From the IMG/VR virus record IMGVR_UViG_2713896832_000003: a stretch of DNA of 20,937 nucleotides; one strand, 5' to 3'. Below the pieces are notes generated by a model. It was given only the letters and a program-made list of their open reading frames with translations, ran no database searches and had not been told where the DNA came from. Shown here piece after piece: positions 7,236 through 16,742 of the stretch (position 1 is its first letter; each line of letters opens with the position of its first letter). The translations under genes were made by a program, and so were the position numbers. This stretch comes from a virus (Duplodnaviria > Heunggongvirae > Uroviricota > Caudoviricetes).

Positions 7236-8180
7236 TCACAACCAGCCGACGCTCTCTCGCCATTTATAATTAGTAACTTTATCATTTTCGCTTATTTTTT
7301 TAGATATAGAGCGCGGCTCTCTTCCTAGATACTCAGATATTTCTATCGGGGACAAATCAAAATCAACAAGCATGACTCTAAGTTTTTCCATTTCCTTTAA
7401 AGTCCAAGGCTTGCCATAATTTTCATAAAGAGATACCTTATGCTCCCTGATAGTTCGCTTTCTCTGAGTTTCACTTTCCCTCTGAAAAATCTCGCTTTTA
7501 AATTGTGAACGGAACTCTTTACAGAAGTTGTTATCAGTTTTTTTGTTATATAGATTGCTAAAAATAAGCTGGGATGCCGGGTCTAAATCAGGTGTGTTAA
7601 TAATGAAAACTTTGACCTTTTCCATATAGGGATATTCAATTTTACCCAATATGCTTAATTGCTTTATATTAAAAAAACCTCTCAAATCAAAAGATTTAAT
7701 GAGCTTTGATTGGATTACACTTTCAATCCTGCTTGCATTTAAATAACAGTACTTTGCCATTGGAAGGGCCCATACTACCAGTTGAGGAATATATTTTTCT
7801 AATGCAATGCTCTGCCAATCAGTATCAAAGGTTTGGCTTTTTGCTAGCATGTTTTTCGGCAAATCAGAATACATTGTGGTAGATGCCCATATCTTATAAT
7901 CATTCGCCAAGGCTTGATAGTATTTTGTGTGGTTATGAATTTTATAAGCTGACATGAAGCGATAAACGTCTTCGTCGTGACCAGCGTCGTAAATTGTTCG
8001 ATTTCCTCTAAGATAACCGTCGTAATGTTCGGTTATCCTTCTACCTACATTACAACTTACCCCAACGTAAACCACACGACTGAAAAGTCCTTTATGGACA
8101 ATAAGATAAACTCCGCTACAGCCAGATTTCCTGGCCTCTGATAGAGAACCTAAAAATCTCCATTCCATAATTAAATCCAT
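7236..8180 (-). CDS. GIY-YIG nuclease-domain protein with a C-terminal putative HTH region
   Basis: N-terminal SGVYLIVHKGLFSRVVYVGVSCNVGRRITEH fits the GIY...YIG...R...E pattern of GIY-YIG nucleases. The C-terminal ~60 aa (PWTLKEMEKLRVMLVDFDLSPIEISEYLGREPRSISKKIS) are HTH-like. AT-rich coding sequence. Confidence 0.7.
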   Translation of the reverse strand: MDLIMEWRFLGSLSEARKSGCSGVYLIVHKGLFSRVVYVGVSCNVGRRITEHYDGYLRGNRTIYDAGHDEDVYRFMSAYKIHNHTKYYQALANDYKIWASTTMYSDLPKNMLAKSQTFDTDWQSIALEKYIPQLVVWALPMAKYCYLNASRIESVIQSKLIKSFDLRGFFNIKQLSILGKIEYPYMEKVKVFIINTPDLDPASQLIFSNLYNKKTDNNFCKEFRSQFKSEIFQRESETQRKRTIREHKVSLYENYGKPWTLKEMEKLRVMLVDFDLSPIEISEYLGREPRSISKKISENDKVTNYKWRESVGWL

Positions 8181-8727: not shown

Positions 8728-10077
8728 TTATTCCGTTTTACATATCATAGTAGTCGATTGGAGAATATAGTTTCTGGGAATGTACTCTTCAAAGTGTTCG
8801 TCCTTTTTAAATACATGAACTACATTTGGGAATAATTGATAGTCAACAGGGTGTATAGCGTTTGGATTATGGTACATGTACATGGCTGTACACCATGGTT
8901 CTTGATAGTTAGGGTCACTTACATCGGCTGAAAATGGATGTGGGGCTGCATCCTGATCAGTTTTAACACCACTGACGTACACTTTGAATCCACTCGCCTC
9001 TACACCTGCAAGAATTCCCATCCGGTTAAACTTAGGTATGGTTGCTTGAGTAGTGAGTAAAACGGCAGAAACATAATTATTTTGTTCTGAGCCAAAAAAG
9101 TTCGACTTGATACTTCTATTTTCATCTGTATGTCTTTCAATAGAAATGCCTGACTCAATATCAATCCCGTACAAATAGCTATGCAAGGCTTCGCTTGAGA
9201 AGGCCATGGACATTCTTTTTGAATAATCCTGCATTGCTATGACAAATGGTTTGTTCTTTGTATGGTTGAGTTCCCAGTAATGAACTTTCTCTGGCTCAGG
9301 GCAATGCCGGACTTTTTTTAATAAACTTCTTGCAAACTTAAAAGGCATGACATTTAGAACATGTTTTCTTAATTCATCCATCTGTTCATCGTTAATGACT
9401 TTTCTTTCAAGAGGGGCTTCTGCTTCAGCAATGCTTACAGCCTCTACAGCAATTTCCACTCCAAATTTAGATAGCAGAAAATCTGGTTGATTGTATTCTC
9501 TATTCATTTCAAAGTCGAGTTCATAAAATACAGCGTTCAAATATAATTCAAATAACCTTGAATTAAATGCATCACTTTGAAAATCCCTTATAAATATTCC
9601 ATCAGGATCTTTGAACCAGTATGCAAGTTCCTCAAGAACAATATATGCAGGGAAATGAAGAGGGTCTTCGAGGAGCATTTTTATATAAACATTCCTTTTT
9701 TTCGCTGGGACCTTACTCAAGAATAATGAAAAAGGTTTGGTTGATTCATCGCCTTGCATGAATGTACCATTTTGGTGCTGCGCCAGCATCTTTGGTATGT
9801 CATCGTTCAAATTATTAAGCAAGACATCCATTGAATCAAATGAAGCCAAGACGTTTATTGCTCTGAATTTTTTATCTAAATCCCGACCTAAGACTATTGC
9901 GTTAAAATCTTTATCAATATTGCATATGATTATTGTGGATAACAATGTTATCCCATTCCCCTCATATTTAAACCAGCGTATCTCCTCAGAAAATGTCTTA
10001 AGGTAAGGTGAGCGACCGTAAAAATAAATATCAAATTGTTCTTTGCTGATCTCACTGAAGTGTAATCCTGCGTTCAT
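8728..10077 (-). CDS. hypothetical protein, 449 aa, no recognised domain
   Basis: Long AT-rich ORF with an AAAAGGAA RBS before the ATG, upstream of and co-oriented with the GIY-YIG gene. A hairpin-plus-T-rich terminator candidate lies on the minus strand around 8672-8700. Confidence 0.7.
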   Translation of the reverse strand: MNAGLHFSEISKEQFDIYFYGRSPYLKTFSEEIRWFKYEGNGITLLSTIIICNIDKDFNAIVLGRDLDKKFRAINVLASFDSMDVLLNNLNDDIPKMLAQHQNGTFMQGDESTKPFSLFLSKVPAKKRNVYIKMLLEDPLHFPAYIVLEELAYWFKDPDGIFIRDFQSDAFNSRLFELYLNAVFYELDFEMNREYNQPDFLLSKFGVEIAVEAVSIAEAEAPLERKVINDEQMDELRKHVLNVMPFKFARSLLKKVRHCPEPEKVHYWELNHTKNKPFVIAMQDYSKRMSMAFSSEALHSYLYGIDIESGISIERHTDENRSIKSNFFGSEQNNYVSAVLLTTQATIPKFNRMGILAGVEASGFKVYVSGVKTDQDAAPHPFSADVSDPNYQEPWCTAMYMYHNPNAIHPVDYQLFPNVVHVFKKDEHFEEYIPRNYILQSTTMICKTE

Positions 10078-10361: not shown

Positions 10362-10394
10362 ACTCAAATCTCCCACATTGCAGGAGATTTGAGT
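10362..10394 (+). promoter_or_regulatory. 12-bp perfect inverted repeat whose right arm covers the RBS of the recombinase gene
   Basis: ACTCAAATCTCC (10362-10373), 9-nt loop, GGAGATTTGAGT (10383-10394), ending 1 nt before ATG 10395. Would sequester the Shine-Dalgarno sequence in the mRNA. Confidence 0.4.
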
Positions 10395-10997
10395 ATGAAC
10401 ACGTCACCGTGGAACAAAGACCGTATCATAGGCCAAAAAAGACCACTTCAGATATCTCATATCTGGGGTATCCGAATCCGACTTGAACTGGAAGGTAAAA
10501 CTCGCGATTTAGCTCTGTTCAACATGGCCCTGGATAGTAAGCTTCGAGGCTGTGATCTGGTCAAACTCAAAGTATCTGATGTTGCATATGGTGGCTCTGT
10601 TTCAAGCAGAGCAACGGTGTTGCAACAGAAAACCGGTAGCCCTGTTCAATTTGAGATAACCAAAGGGACAAGAGAAGCTGTTGCTGCATTGATACAGCTT
10701 AGCAATTTGCACAGTAAAGACTTCTTGTTTCGGTCTAGGGTCGGAACTAACCAGCACATTTCAACCCGGCAATACAACCGAATCTTTCATGGGGGGGTAG
10801 AAAAGCTTGGTCTCGAAGATTCGCTTTACAGCACACATTCCATGAGAAGAACAAAACCTTACCTGATCTACAAGAAAACCAAGAATCTCCGGGTGATCCA
10901 ACTTCTGTTGGGTCATAAGAAACTGGAAAGCACAGTCCGTTATCTGGGCATTGAAGTCGATGATGCGTTAGAGATTTCTGAATCGATTGAAGTCTAA
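10395..10997 (+). CDS. FimB/FimE-like short tyrosine recombinase (catalytic domain only, ~200 aa)
   Basis: Contains the tyrosine-recombinase catalytic residues in order (LRGCDL; QQKTGSPVQ; HSMRRT; LLLGHKKLESTVRYL) but no N-terminal core-binding domain, the FimB/FimE architecture. The ORF track starts at TTG 10389; ATG 10395 with an AGGAG RBS is more likely. Confidence 0.8.
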   Translation: MNTSPWNKDRIIGQKRPLQISHIWGIRIRLELEGKTRDLALFNMALDSKLRGCDLVKLKVSDVAYGGSVSSRATVLQQKTGSPVQFEITKGTREAVAALIQLSNLHSKDFLFRSRVGTNQHISTRQYNRIFHGGVEKLGLEDSLYSTHSMRRTKPYLIYKKTKNLRVIQLLLGHKKLESTVRYLGIEVDDALEISESIEV

Positions 10998-11356: not shown

Positions 11357-12337
11357 ATGAAATTTAAGGACAAGAACCTTAAGGCTCTCGCGGAATGTAT
11401 CATAGGAGATAATAAGGCATTTCTGTATCGTTCAAGCAGTCACATCACTGAATTTTTCCAGGACTGCGGCATGGATGTTACTCATGACGGATCCACTCGG
11501 TGGAAATGGACGGCCCAGAGGCTTGAAGAACTTCTTTATGAGCCACAGTCAAAGCCACATACTTTGCCGGAAAGGTTTGTTCATGTGCTCAGAACTTTAA
11601 TGTTAAAAGAAGATGCAATGGATGACGATCCAGGAAGATTAAAGGCGCTTGAAGAACTGAACAAGCCTTTGATGCGGGAAGGCTATGAGGCATTCTATGG
11701 TGACGATCGCCTTTTGTATATACGCCATACCGATACCAAAACGGTTTCAGTCAGTAATAACCCTCATCGGCCCTTAACGCCTCACGAAGTAGAATGCAGA
11801 AGGTTACTGACCGCGTTTCTTGATACCTGCTCAGAAGATGAGTTAATAGAAGATATTCTCCTTCCTTTATTCCGGCAACTTGGTTTTCACCGGATAACAG
11901 CAGTGGGACATAAAGATAAAGCGCTGGAATACGGGAAAGACATCTGGATGAAGTTCACACTGCCAACTCAGCATGTTCTTTATTTCGGCATTCAGGCAAA
12001 AAAAGGTAAGTTGGATGCGTCCGGTGCCAGCAAATCTACGAATTCAAACGTGGCAGAAATCTTCAACCAGGTACTGATGATGCTTGGCCATGAAATATTT
12101 GACCCAGAAACAAATAGAAAGGTGCTGGTAGATCATGCCTTTATCGTTGCTGGCGGAGAAATTACTAAACAGGCGAGGAACTGGCTGGGCGGGAAACTTG
12201 ATGCCAGCAAAAGAAGCCAGATAATATTTATGGACCGGGAAGACATTCTTAATTTATATACTGTAAGTAATGTACCTCTGCCAACAGGTGCTCTCATCTC
12301 TGATGATGCCGTTAAGAACGATGATATTCCTTTCTAA
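11357..12337 (+). CDS. hypothetical protein with an Mrr-like (PD-(D/E)xK, D...QxK) nuclease motif in the C-terminal half
   Basis: Strong RBS GAGGGGGAG before the ATG. Motif ...EYGKDIWMKF...HVLYFGIQAKKGKL resembles the Asp...Gln-x-Lys catalytic signature of Mrr-type restriction endonuclease domains; the N-terminal ~160 aa are unassigned. Confidence 0.65.
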   Translation: MKFKDKNLKALAECIIGDNKAFLYRSSSHITEFFQDCGMDVTHDGSTRWKWTAQRLEELLYEPQSKPHTLPERFVHVLRTLMLKEDAMDDDPGRLKALEELNKPLMREGYEAFYGDDRLLYIRHTDTKTVSVSNNPHRPLTPHEVECRRLLTAFLDTCSEDELIEDILLPLFRQLGFHRITAVGHKDKALEYGKDIWMKFTLPTQHVLYFGIQAKKGKLDASGASKSTNSNVAEIFNQVLMMLGHEIFDPETNRKVLVDHAFIVAGGEITKQARNWLGGKLDASKRSQIIFMDREDILNLYTVSNVPLPTGALISDDAVKNDDIPF

Positions 12338-12561
12338 TCAGAAGTACGTCTTTTTCTGAAAGAATACGTGATAGGTAGCCACACCACACCTTTAGTGACC
12401 CCTTAATCTGGTAATATAACAGCCCGTATGAATGTCCGCGGCATCGCGGGCTGAAATTTATTAAAAATACTTATTCATCAAGCTGGAGTAGTTTGCCGAG
12501 TAACTGTAAACGCCCAACTTAACCGGACCATTCACTTTTAGATTGCTACCAGCAAACCAAC

Positions 12562-12585
12562 TTCCGTTTCTCGCTCAAAGCGGAC
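12562..12585. repeat. palindromic repeat, copy C (TTCCGTTTCTCGCTCAAAGCGGAC)
   Basis: Closest to copy D; lies ~225 nt after the Mrr-like gene at the right edge of the AT-rich island. Confidence 0.45.
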
Positions 12586-12764
12586 TAGAAGGTTAGCTTG
12601 CGTCGGACTTGGCGTATTTAAAGAAGTGCTGGTGGTAACTGGTTGTTGTGTTCCATTTCTACAAAACAAAATCACAGAAACTATACCCAATAGTTATATT
12701 GAATCAATGATGAGACAGCCTCATATTTATCAGAACTGGTGTACGTCCAATACAGGAGGTTGTC

Positions 12765-12854
12765 GTGCTGGTTCTCAAATATGCGCTAGCTATTGCGGCT
12801 GTAATGGCAATTTATTGTCTTGCTATTGTTCTTACGGATCGCCTTTCTGATTGA
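12765..12854 (+). CDS. candidate small hydrophobic peptide, 29 aa (MLVLKYALAIAAVMAIYCLAIVLTDRLSD)
   Basis: GTG start 5 nt after a perfect AGGAGG (12754-12759); single predicted transmembrane-like helix. Not in the ORF track because of size; overlaps the listed 12626..12850 Cys-rich ORF in another frame. Confidence 0.3.
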   Translation: MLVLKYALAIAAVMAIYCLAIVLTDRLSD

Positions 12855-13065
12855 TTTTATATTGGCGAGGTGACGGGAGTTAAGTAGAATTGCTGCGGGT
12901 GCTTGAGGCTATCTGCCTCAGGCATGAACACCAAAGGCAGATAGAGAAAAGCCCCAGTTAACATTACGCGTCCTGCAAGACGTTTAACATTAATCTGAGG
13001 CTCAATCTATGAACGGCAAATCTAGGTTAGCCTCTTACGTGCCGAAAGGCAAGGAGAAGCAGGCT

Positions 13066-13221
13066 ATGAAGCAGCAAAAGGCGATGTTAATCGCCCTGAT
13101 CGTCATCTGTTTAACCGTCATAATGACGGCACTGGTAACGAGGAAAGACCTCTGCGAGGTACGAATCCGAACCGGCCAGACGGAGGTCGCTGTCTTCACA
13201 GCTTACGAACCTGAGGAGTAA
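13066..13221 (+). CDS. hokD: Hok/Gef family membrane toxin HokD (RelF)
   Basis: 51-aa product MKQQKAMLIALIVICLTVIMTALVTRKDLCEVRIRTGQTEVAVFTAYEPEE matches recalled HokD; AAGGAG RBS at 13051-13056. The listed ORF 13009..13221 is an in-frame 19-codon upstream extension. Confidence 0.85.
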   Translation: MKQQKAMLIALIVICLTVIMTALVTRKDLCEVRIRTGQTEVAVFTAYEPEE

Positions 13222-13290
13222 GAGACCAGGCGGGGGAGAATCCCTCGCCACCTCTGATGTGTCAGGCATCCTCAACGCACCCGCACTTAA

Positions 13291-13320
13291 CCCGCTTCGG
13301 CGGGTTTTTGTTTTTATTTT
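13291..13320 (+). terminator. rho-independent terminator after hokD
   Basis: CCCGC-TTCG-GCGGG stem-loop followed by TTTTTGTTTTT. Confidence 0.6.
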
Positions 13321-13436
13321 CAACGCGTTTGAAGTTCTGGACGGTGCCGGAATAGAATCAAAAATACTTAAGTAGCGCGCAGGGATAAGAGGGATGGTCC
13401 CTTAAAGGGGAGAGCTAATTATCCGGAAGGATTCTG

Positions 13437-13688
13437 ATGATGAACATCGAAGAACTGCGTAAAATTTTTTGTGAAGATGGCCTCTATGCTGTGTGCGTTG
13501 AAAATGGAAATCTTGTTAGTCATTACCGCATTATGTGTTTGCGAAAGAATGGGGCTGCGTTAATTAATTTTGTGGATGGTCGAGTGACAGACGGATTTAT
13601 CTTGCGCGAAGGTGAGTTTGTCACTTCATTACAGGCACTGAAAGAGATTGGAATAAAAGCAGGCTTTTCAGCTTTTGCAGAAGAATAA
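13437..13688 (+). CDS. rem: Rem-like small protein, 83 aa
   Basis: GGAAGG RBS; 83-aa ORF directly downstream of hokD, matching the size and position of rem in Qin (recalled gene order hokD-rem-ydfU-quuQ). Sequence identity is not independently verified. Confidence 0.5.
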   Translation: MMNIEELRKIFCEDGLYAVCVENGNLVSHYRIMCLRKNGAALINFVDGRVTDGFILREGEFVTSLQALKEIGIKAGFSAFAEE

Positions 13689-16432: not shown

Positions 16433-16508
16433 GGCCCTTTAGCTCAGTGGTGAGAGCGAGCGACTCATAATCGACAGGTCGCTGGGTCAAATCCAGCAAG
16501 GGCCACCA
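16433..16508 (+). tRNA. tRNA, anticodon CAU, Ile2 (ileX-like)
   Basis: 76 nt; 7-bp acceptor stem GGCCCTT/AAGGGCC, 4-bp D stem, anticodon loop CTCATAA, discriminator A and encoded CCA. Resembles E. coli tRNA-Ile2 as recalled, but has two mismatches in the anticodon stem and G at T-loop position 54. Confidence 0.7.
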
Positions 16509-16509
16509 A

Positions 16510-16586
16510 CCGTCACCAGTTCATCAGGAAAGAGCGTCAACCCTTTAAGTTGAGTGTGCGAGGTTCGAGTCCCCGGTGGCGGTCCA
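16510..16586 (+). tRNA. atypical tRNA-like gene, anticodon loop CCTTTAA (anticodon UUU if functional); possibly a pseudo-tRNA
   Basis: Folds as a cloverleaf with encoded CCA, but has C1-G72, C at position 8, C at position 33 and one T-stem mismatch. Confidence 0.4.
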
Positions 16587-16588
16587 GT

Positions 16589-16664
<76 letters not shown>

Positions 16665-16667
16665 TAT

Positions 16668-16742
<75 letters not shown>

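Follow-up and report, generated by a model that had tools for sequence, protein, structure and literature searches.

The toxin-antitoxin locus hokW-sokW (with mokW) is carried by the Stx2 prophage Sp5 (VT2-Sakai) of Escherichia coli O157:H7. HokW is toxic, and the sokW RNA, which is transcribed from its own promoter and was detected by northern blot, neutralises it; a mutation of the sokW -10 region abolishes this protection (Takada et al. 2021, PMC8621323). Upon treatment with mitomycin C, sokW disappears and HokW is made in a RecA-dependent manner, and hokW-sokW raises the release of Sp5 phage about 2-fold after this treatment (PMC8621323). A related locus, hok/mok/sok (parB), resides on plasmid R1 and has its role in post-segregational killing. 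For the R1 hok mRNA, a metastable, a closed full-length and an open truncated conformation have been described (PMC9841398), and the nomenclature of the complementary boxes used here (ucb and related terms) follows this model.

In E. coli K-12, hok-type genes are found in different surroundings. In the hokC/mokC/sokC (gef) locus, an IS186 element has inserted some 20 bp past the end of the CDS, so that the fbi element is lost. The hokD gene (relF) lies in the Qin prophage, in the gene order dicA, dicC, ydfX, ydfW, flxA, ydfV, relB, relE, hokD, rem, ydfU, Q, and is thus the third gene of relBEF, as stated in a prediction made from the DNA sequence alone (hereafter, the original prediction).

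Here, we present a computational analysis of a hokD locus in a stretch of 20,937 nt from the tailed-phage record IMGVR_UViG_2713896832_000003; this whole 20.9-kb stretch is referred to as the window. The original prediction held that hokD occurs here as an orphan toxin gene without relBE and has to use its own upstream region, so that it may behave as a free-standing hok/sok-like type I system. According to our results, the segment 12862-13316 is likely to be a complete, self-contained and functional hok/mok/sok type I toxin-antitoxin module of the hokD/hokW lineage. Elements of this kind are already known, very common and ordinary in E. coli prophages.

Genomic context of the locus

In E. coli strain UK_Dog_Liverpool (NZ_CP031653), a segment of the chromosome matches the window with 100% identity, and the host element is a Qin-like defective lambdoid prophage. 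Its genes follow the order exonuclease, ydfD, dicB ... DUF977, an insert not found in K-12, hokD, rem, a 92-aa ORF, DUF968, rusA, Q, three tRNA genes, and fragmented lysis and tail genes. The hokD module lies in the nin region, with DUF968, rusA and Q downstream of it, and on its 5′ side are a 326-aa ORF without Pfam match, a truncated integrase and other genes. The late genes of the prophage are broken up, with no intact lysis or morphogenesis genes. The hok module is present as a single copy in its genome and must therefore supply its own Sok.

The three tRNA genes (16433-16739, plus strand) downstream of the Q antiterminator gene are annotated in RefSeq as Ile, Thr and Gly; tRNA genes in this position are typical of lambdoid and Stx-type prophages. 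On the other side of the module, an ORF of 449 aa (8728-10077, minus strand) matches the anti-phage defence protein PD-T7-1 of PADLOC over its full length (E 7e-157), with a weaker match to PD-T7-5. Its neighbours at 7236-8180 (minus strand), 10389-10997 (plus strand) and 11357-12337 (plus strand) are a truncated phage integrase and two ORFs without Pfam match. The PD-T7-1 gene sits in the segment that replaces the K-12 block dicC...flxA-ydfV-relBE, and this segment has the appearance of a defence island that entered the early region of the prophage by insertion.

A further, unannotated ORF of 29 aa (12765-12854, plus strand; MLVLKYALAIAAVMAIYCLAIVLTDRLSD) would encode a hydrophobic sequence, starts with GTG preceded by a GGAGG Shine-Dalgarno sequence 7 nt upstream, and ends 8 nt before the -35 hexamer of the hok promoter. 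It is kept upstream of 23 related hokD-type loci with about the same length and the same stop position, and versions that are only 46-50% identical still keep the pattern A.A...YCL..L.DRL. No family was found for it in Pfam, NCBIfam and PHROG scans, and the substitutions between close variants show no bias to third codon positions. This putative coding sequence could specify a second small membrane protein or toxin.

Reading frames of hokD and mok and absence of relBE

The following protein-coding features were located in the module:

13066-13221, plus strand: hokD CDS, 51-aa membrane toxin (tblastn, Pfam)
13051-13056, plus strand: hok Shine-Dalgarno sequence AAGGAG (from the sequence)
13009-13221, plus strand: mok-equivalent ORF of 70 codons, in frame and co-terminal with hok
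12997-13000, plus strand: mok Shine-Dalgarno sequence GAGG, 8 nt before the ATG at 13009
13204-13207, plus strand: TACG motif at the Tyr47 codon, of the type edited A-to-I by TadA (Tyr to Cys)

The hokD gene is present as predicted. Its product is identical to K-12 HokD in 50 of 51 positions (98%; V20M; tblastn E 4e-30) and matches the Pfam family HOK_GEF (PF01848) with an E-value of 4e-23 and 81 bits against a cutoff of 22; the V20M variant is presumably toxic as well. The claimed absence of relBE also holds. Searches with K-12 RelB and RelE by tblastn, which covered the whole 20.9-kb window in its six reading frames (word size 2, E up to 100), returned noise with best E-values of 0.11 and 1.1, respectively, blastn with a word size of 7 found no relBE in the window, and no relB and relE ORFs are located directly upstream of hokD.

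The in-frame extension of 19 codons starting at ATG 13009, which gives the total of 70 codons that had been assigned to the length class of Mok, was recovered with the stop at 13221. Of 78 near-identical loci, 68 retain this extension, and the ORF matches PHROG 251, “MokW-like host killing”, with an E-value of 1e-32. In phages, the ORF is annotated as MokW-like or as “gef homolog orf74”. The GAGG of the mok Shine-Dalgarno sequence is invariant in the family alignment and is sequestered in both the full-length and the truncated predicted folds. Among the relatives compared (loci L071-L150), the other ten of the 78 have lost 2 nt behind the ATG of mok, so that mok and hok are in different frames. 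Because the frame of mok varies among relatives, the Mok product itself is probably unimportant, and it would be translation through the region that matters. The mok gene of R1, which has 70 codons as well, is presumably out of frame with its hok gene.

The Tyr47 region TACGAA is invariant in 34 of 34 aligned family members. Editing of this type by TadA has been reported for hokC, hokD and hokE (PMC5630033).

The hok mRNA and its predicted folds

The elements assigned to the sense transcript are:

12862-12890, plus strand: sigma-70-like hok mRNA promoter from the promoter scan (-35 TTGGCG at 12862-12867, 17-nt spacer, -10 TAGAAT at 12885-12890)
12897-13316, plus strand: predicted full-length hok (mok/hok) mRNA of about 420 nt
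12897-12908, plus strand: tac (translational activator) element GGGUGCUUGAGG at the mRNA 5′ end, an exact match unique in the window
12915-12925, plus strand: partner of tac in the nascent metastable hairpin, pairing with 12899-12909
12909-12944, plus strand: conserved 5′ stem-loop CTATCTGCC...GGCAGATAG with exact arms at 12909-12917 and 12936-12944
12949-12955, plus strand: ucb (upstream complementary box, anti-SD) AAGCCCC, the partner of the mok Shine-Dalgarno sequence in the full-length fold and of tac in the 3′-truncated one
13029-13034, plus strand: dcb (downstream complementary box) AGCCUC, pairing with the mok Shine-Dalgarno sequence in the target hairpin of the truncated form
13270-13282, plus strand: fbi (fold-back inhibition) element CCUCAA-C-GCACCC, complementary to tac
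13289-13316, plus strand: intrinsic terminator, with a stem-loop at 13289-13306 followed by a T-run ending at about 13316

The -10 hexamer of the hok promoter is kept in relatives as TAGAAT or TATAAT. Transcription of the mRNA would start at about G12897, with the promoter ending 7 nt before, and the Rfam model as well as the family-conserved tac element begin at this same position. The span 12855-13320 delimited in the original prediction comes close to the limits of the module, which are set by the -35 hexamer at 12862 and the end of the T-run at about 13316, and module boundaries of 12877-13315 recur in thousands of genomes.

The Rfam family RF01794 has a full-length match (1-157) to positions 12897-13071 of the hok-sense strand, where it scores 111.7 bits and the gathering score is 59 (E 5e-25). 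Its consensus begins with GGGUGCUUGA, which is the 5′ end of the hok mRNA (tac). Since the match lies on the hok-sense strand and the consensus starts with tac, the model recognises the hok leader, and Sok is the complement. The family is named “sok antitoxin”, yet the true Sok strand scores only 18.6 bits, and strand calls from RF01794 should not be taken as the orientation of Sok. Beyond RF01794, an E-value scan of Rfam over 12300-13450 on both strands gave sub-threshold noise.

Three forms of the transcript were folded. In the first 34 nt, an 11-bp hairpin sequesters tac (-19.6 kcal/mol, z -5.2). The full-length RNA has a minimum free energy (MFE) of -171.3 kcal/mol (z -7.1) and paired 5′ and 3′ ends: tac and fbi form a duplex of 12 bp with one bulge (-21.5 kcal/mol), which is present in both the MFE and the centroid structures, and ucb helps to hold the mok GAGG in a long hairpin. 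When the last 48 nt or so are removed, tac is predicted to pair with ucb around the 9-bp hairpin, and the mok Shine-Dalgarno sequence and AUG move to the weaker hairpin with dcb. This target hairpin (12997-13034) has -14.7 kcal/mol and a z-score of -3.8, and the dcb region GCCTCTTAC is invariant in the family alignment. As far as thermodynamic prediction goes, the nascent, full-length and 3′-truncated folds are the three R1 conformations (metastable, closed, open).

The hairpin with a 9-bp stem at 12909-12944, which the original prediction had singled out, is real: its arms are exact, and the 64-nt 5′ segment containing it reaches -30.3 kcal/mol (z -4.4), with none of 200 shuffles as good. It is not an isolated feature: it corresponds to the stem-loop that hok mRNAs conserve near their 5′ end, inside the stem formed by tac. 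The stretch 13029-13044 was also tried as ucb and rejected, forced pairing with tac in the truncated RNA being 8.9 kcal/mol worse than the MFE. By the R1 model (PMC9841398) this box is dcb and the real ucb is at 12949-12955, so the forced pairing is irrelevant.

The predicted Sok antisense RNA

Two features were assigned to the opposite strand:

13024-13052, minus strand: predicted Sok promoter inside mok (-35 TTGCCT at 13052-13047, 17-nt spacer, -10 TAACCT at 13029-13024)
12941-13017, minus strand: predicted Sok RNA of about 77 nt, with approximate ends set by analogy with the annotated sokC of K-12

The Sok promoter was not called by a generic scan for the sigma-70 consensus, because its -10 hexamer TAACCT matches the consensus in only 3 of 6 positions. 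The assignment was kept owing to the identity of this stretch to the promoter region of Sp5 sokW; 13024-13065 are wholly identical between the two loci. The hexamer TAACCT at 13024-13029 corresponds to the one changed by the promoter-less sokW primer YO-421 of PMC8621323. In the predicted Sok RNA (-29.5 kcal/mol, z -4.6), a 5′ tail that is single-stranded and complementary to the start region of mok is followed by a long hairpin and then by a 3′ tail rich in U; the annotated 59-nt SokC of K-12 has the same layout. Both the Sok RNA and the hok mRNA are probably transcribed.

Conservation of the fold within the family

For a comparison across genera, 66 Hok-encoding loci were taken from species-representative genomes, and 33 full modules from Escherichia, Kluyvera, Photorhabdus, Pantoea and other genera were aligned with the window, giving 34 loci. 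When the full-length fold of the window was projected onto this alignment, 84% of the cells were standard pairs, compared with 39-46% when the partners were slid by 1-3 columns. Changes on both sides were found at 45 pairs versus 18-24 in the slid controls, and none of 500 shuffles reached the observed values. This control is partly circular, the tested fold being the window's own MFE structure, but the double changes are still real substitutions.

The tac/fbi helix (helix 1) is 92% paired, and 4 of its pairs show compensatory changes. Where Escherichia and Kluyvera have GGGUGC/GCACCC, Photorhabdus and Pantoea have GGGCGC/GCGCCC (U-A to C-G), and GAGG/CCUC is replaced by GAGA/UCUC or GAAG/CUUC in relatives. 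In the 5′ stem-loop (helix 2), 93.5% of the cells are paired, and 4 of 10 pairs are changed on both sides. MAFFT places the Photorhabdus fbi off by one column because a bulged C is absent there, and it fails on the hypervariable mok-start hairpin, where helix 5 is only 51% paired; due to these misalignments, the figures for single helices at fbi and at the mok start understate conservation. An alignment of the upstream region with hok/sok family elements had been proposed as a check on the original prediction, and it speaks for a hok leader both by the RF01794 match of 111.7 bits and by the compensatory changes in the 34 loci. The sequence elements and predicted structures for R1-type control are all present, intact and conserved.

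Comparison with described systems

The window is 93.5% identical in DNA sequence to hokW-sokW over 12877-13292. Both loci encode a Hok of 51 aa and an in-frame Mok of 70 codons, the latter annotated in Sp5 as “gef homolog” or MokW, and both are carried by lambdoid prophages. The hok promoter -10, tac, the 5′ hairpin, ucb, the predicted Sok hairpin, dcb, the predicted Sok promoter and fbi are the same. Differences concern mok codons 2-5, which correspond to the Sok 5′ tail (AACGGCAAATCT versus CTGAACACATGT), and the C-terminus of Hok (FTAYEPEE in the window, FVDYESEK in HokW). The sequences also diverge downstream of fbi, where the window has a canonical terminator like that of K-12 hokD, and the prophage in the window is defective whereas Sp5 is inducible.

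With K-12 relB-relE-hokD the module shares the hokD CDS (50 of 51 aa), its Shine-Dalgarno sequence, the 3′ UTR, fbi and the terminator, and the downstream genes rem, DUF968 (ydfU) and Q are common to both. In contrast, the K-12 locus lacks everything upstream of 13052, namely the hok promoter, tac, the 5′ hairpin, ucb, the mok start, the Sok RNA and the Sok -10 hexamer, and has relBE instead. K-12 hokC/mokC/sokC resembles the module in its leader architecture, an identical tac, a mok that is in frame and co-terminal with hok, and the annotated SokC in the corresponding position; it differs in a Sok hairpin that is 18 nt shorter and in a Hok identity of about 80%. The R1 locus comprises the same elements and shares the folding pathway through three conformations (PMC9841398; predicted folds in our case), but the Hok identity is about 44%, a figure given for HokW, and R1 is a plasmid.

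Distribution of the leader and direction of change

Of 5426 complete E. coli genomes, 4191 (77%) contain the 189-nt leader (12877-13065), with 9064 copies in total and up to 10 per genome, most of them 90-99% identical. In roughly 350 genomes the leader identity is at least 99%. In RefSeq (PGAP), only the 51-aa “hokD” CDS is labelled, and nothing is annotated under the leader. The relE-hokD junction of the K-12 type occurs in 1165 of the 5426 genomes (21%). Similarly, among the best 80 IMG/VR (pro)phage loci with a HokD at least 98% identical, 77 have the leader and 2 have relE.

The DNA of K-12 is homologous to the window upstream of the hokD ATG at 13052-13065 only (14 nt), which places the relE-hokD breakpoint at 13051/13052, inside the Sok -35 hexamer. 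K-12 hokD keeps fbi and the terminator, with no tac anywhere nearby, and its fbi is vestigial. Since the homology starts at 13052 and fbi is left without its tac partner, K-12 is the truncated form. On this comparison, the leader-bearing module without relBE is the common and original state, which the other members of the hok family share, and relBEF of K-12 is a derived truncation. The description of the locus in the window as an “orphan” therefore has the relation the wrong way round, given that the leader without relBE prevails in the genome counts and K-12 has the truncated version.

A relE 3′ end joined to hok was also seen outside E. coli, in Enterobacteriaceae bacterium G50 (L025) and Kluyvera sp. 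CHPC 1.2972 (L035), and in two further E. coli loci (L056 and L066); the Hok proteins of these four loci are only 70-82% identical to that of the window. In view of the junctions outside E. coli, the fusion of relBE and hok is either old or mobile with its prophage.

A variable stretch at the start of mok

Among 78 near-identical loci, the most variable transcribed stretch is 12997-13023, which extends from the mok Shine-Dalgarno sequence to codon 5 and covers the predicted 5′ end of Sok. Its minor-allele fraction is 0.13-0.21, while tac, the Sok -35 hexamer and the hok Shine-Dalgarno sequence do not exceed 0.01. In mok codons 2-5, at least eight discrete alleles exist among hokD-type modules that are otherwise 95-99% identical, and with every one of them a hairpin whose stem contains the mok AUG can still form. 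The allele of the window, ATGAACGGCAAATCT, is common to 9 of the 78 loci. Co-resident copies in one genome differ in their allele (L005 versus L018; L008, L010 and L019). These 12-15 nt make up the recognition tail at the 5′ end of the predicted Sok as well as the target-hairpin loop. We tentatively propose, as a possibility rather than as the expected outcome, that they might be a hypervariable specificity cassette that lets several prophage-borne modules coexist without cross-neutralising each other. If this were true, each prophage would keep a private addiction or exclusion module.

Proposed mechanism and alternative explanations

From homology with hok/sok of R1 and hokW-sokW of Sp5, we infer the following course of events. 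A constitutive promoter would give rise to the mRNA of about 420 nt, with the 5′ tac locked in a metastable hairpin as long as the transcript is nascent. In the complete transcript, tac would pair with the 3′ fbi and ucb would hold the mok Shine-Dalgarno sequence, so that the RNA would be neither translated nor bound by Sok. Slow 3′ trimming would then remove fbi, upon which tac would switch to ucb and the mok Shine-Dalgarno sequence and AUG would enter the weaker dcb hairpin. This hairpin would be the target of Sok, a short and unstable antisense RNA made from the promoter inside mok, which would block translation of mok and hence the coupled translation of hok, and trigger cleavage of the duplex. 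Once Sok synthesis stops, the pool of processed mRNA would be translated, and Hok would depolarise the inner membrane.

At the sequence level, the RF01794 match, the mok ORF, tac/fbi and the predicted Sok region support the reading that hokD uses its own upstream region and forms a free-standing locus of the hok/sok type. That it is also more than a silent relic, as the original prediction suggested, we infer. Several points count against a functional module: the Sok -10 with its three consensus matches, the silent chromosomal hok loci, the partly circular structure control and the defective prophage. The main rival to this reading takes up some of them and assumes a module that is structurally intact but physiologically silent, with weak transcription at most, Sok always in excess and no phenotype, and conserved mainly by hitch-hiking and recent spread of prophages. 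Precedents exist in hokA of E. coli C, hokB of K-12 and hokC of ECOR24, intact chromosomal loci for which neither post-segregational killing nor activation by rifampicin was reported (Pedersen & Gerdes 1999, as summarised in bioRxiv 10.1101/2025.08.07.668861). The decay of the prophage fits this assumption, and recent spread could explain much of the conservation among copies that are mostly 90-99% identical. It does not sit well with compensatory changes that keep the fold across genera, or with regulatory boxes that are far less variable than adjoining leader positions. Moreover, hokW-sokW, whose sequence is nearly identical, has been shown to be active and to be regulated (PMC8621323), and the HokD peptide is toxic when expressed (bioRxiv 10.1101/2025.08.07.668861). 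We consider a silent module unlikely. The idea that hokD is what was left of a relBE-hokD (relBEF) operon after deletion of relBE, with unrelated filler upstream and with hairpin and ORF extension arising by chance, draws on the gene order of K-12, where hokD comes third after relB and relE. We give it practically no credence: it is refuted by the RF01794 match, by the K-12 alignment, by the upstream 170 nt being homologous to hok leaders family-wide, by the leader occurring in 77% of the genomes against 21% for the relE junction, and by the fbi without tac, which marks K-12 as truncated.

A different question is what a functional module would be good for. Its role may be related to phages and not to addiction, either in abortive infection or exclusion together with the adjoining defence island, or in assisting lysis when the prophage is induced, as has been shown for hokW. 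The increased release of Sp5 in the presence of hokW-sokW (PMC8621323) is in line with the latter, and the former finds a parallel in R1 hok/sok, which reduces plating of T4 (cited in PMC8621323). In this defective prophage with its fragmented late genes, however, the release function of hokW cannot apply directly and is moot without intact lysis and morphogenesis genes, and a survey saw no enrichment of hok near defence systems (bioRxiv 10.1101/2025.08.07.668861). A phage-related role appears rather unlikely.

The current understanding of type I toxin-antitoxin systems is unchallenged by these results. They do imply that in most E. coli the hokD-type gene is a full hok/mok/sok module, with K-12 as the exception. 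The name hokD invites the picture of relBEF, and awareness of the leader avoids that hokD loci are misread as orphan toxins or relics. This also bears on the use of K-12 hokD as a reference for studies of regulation.
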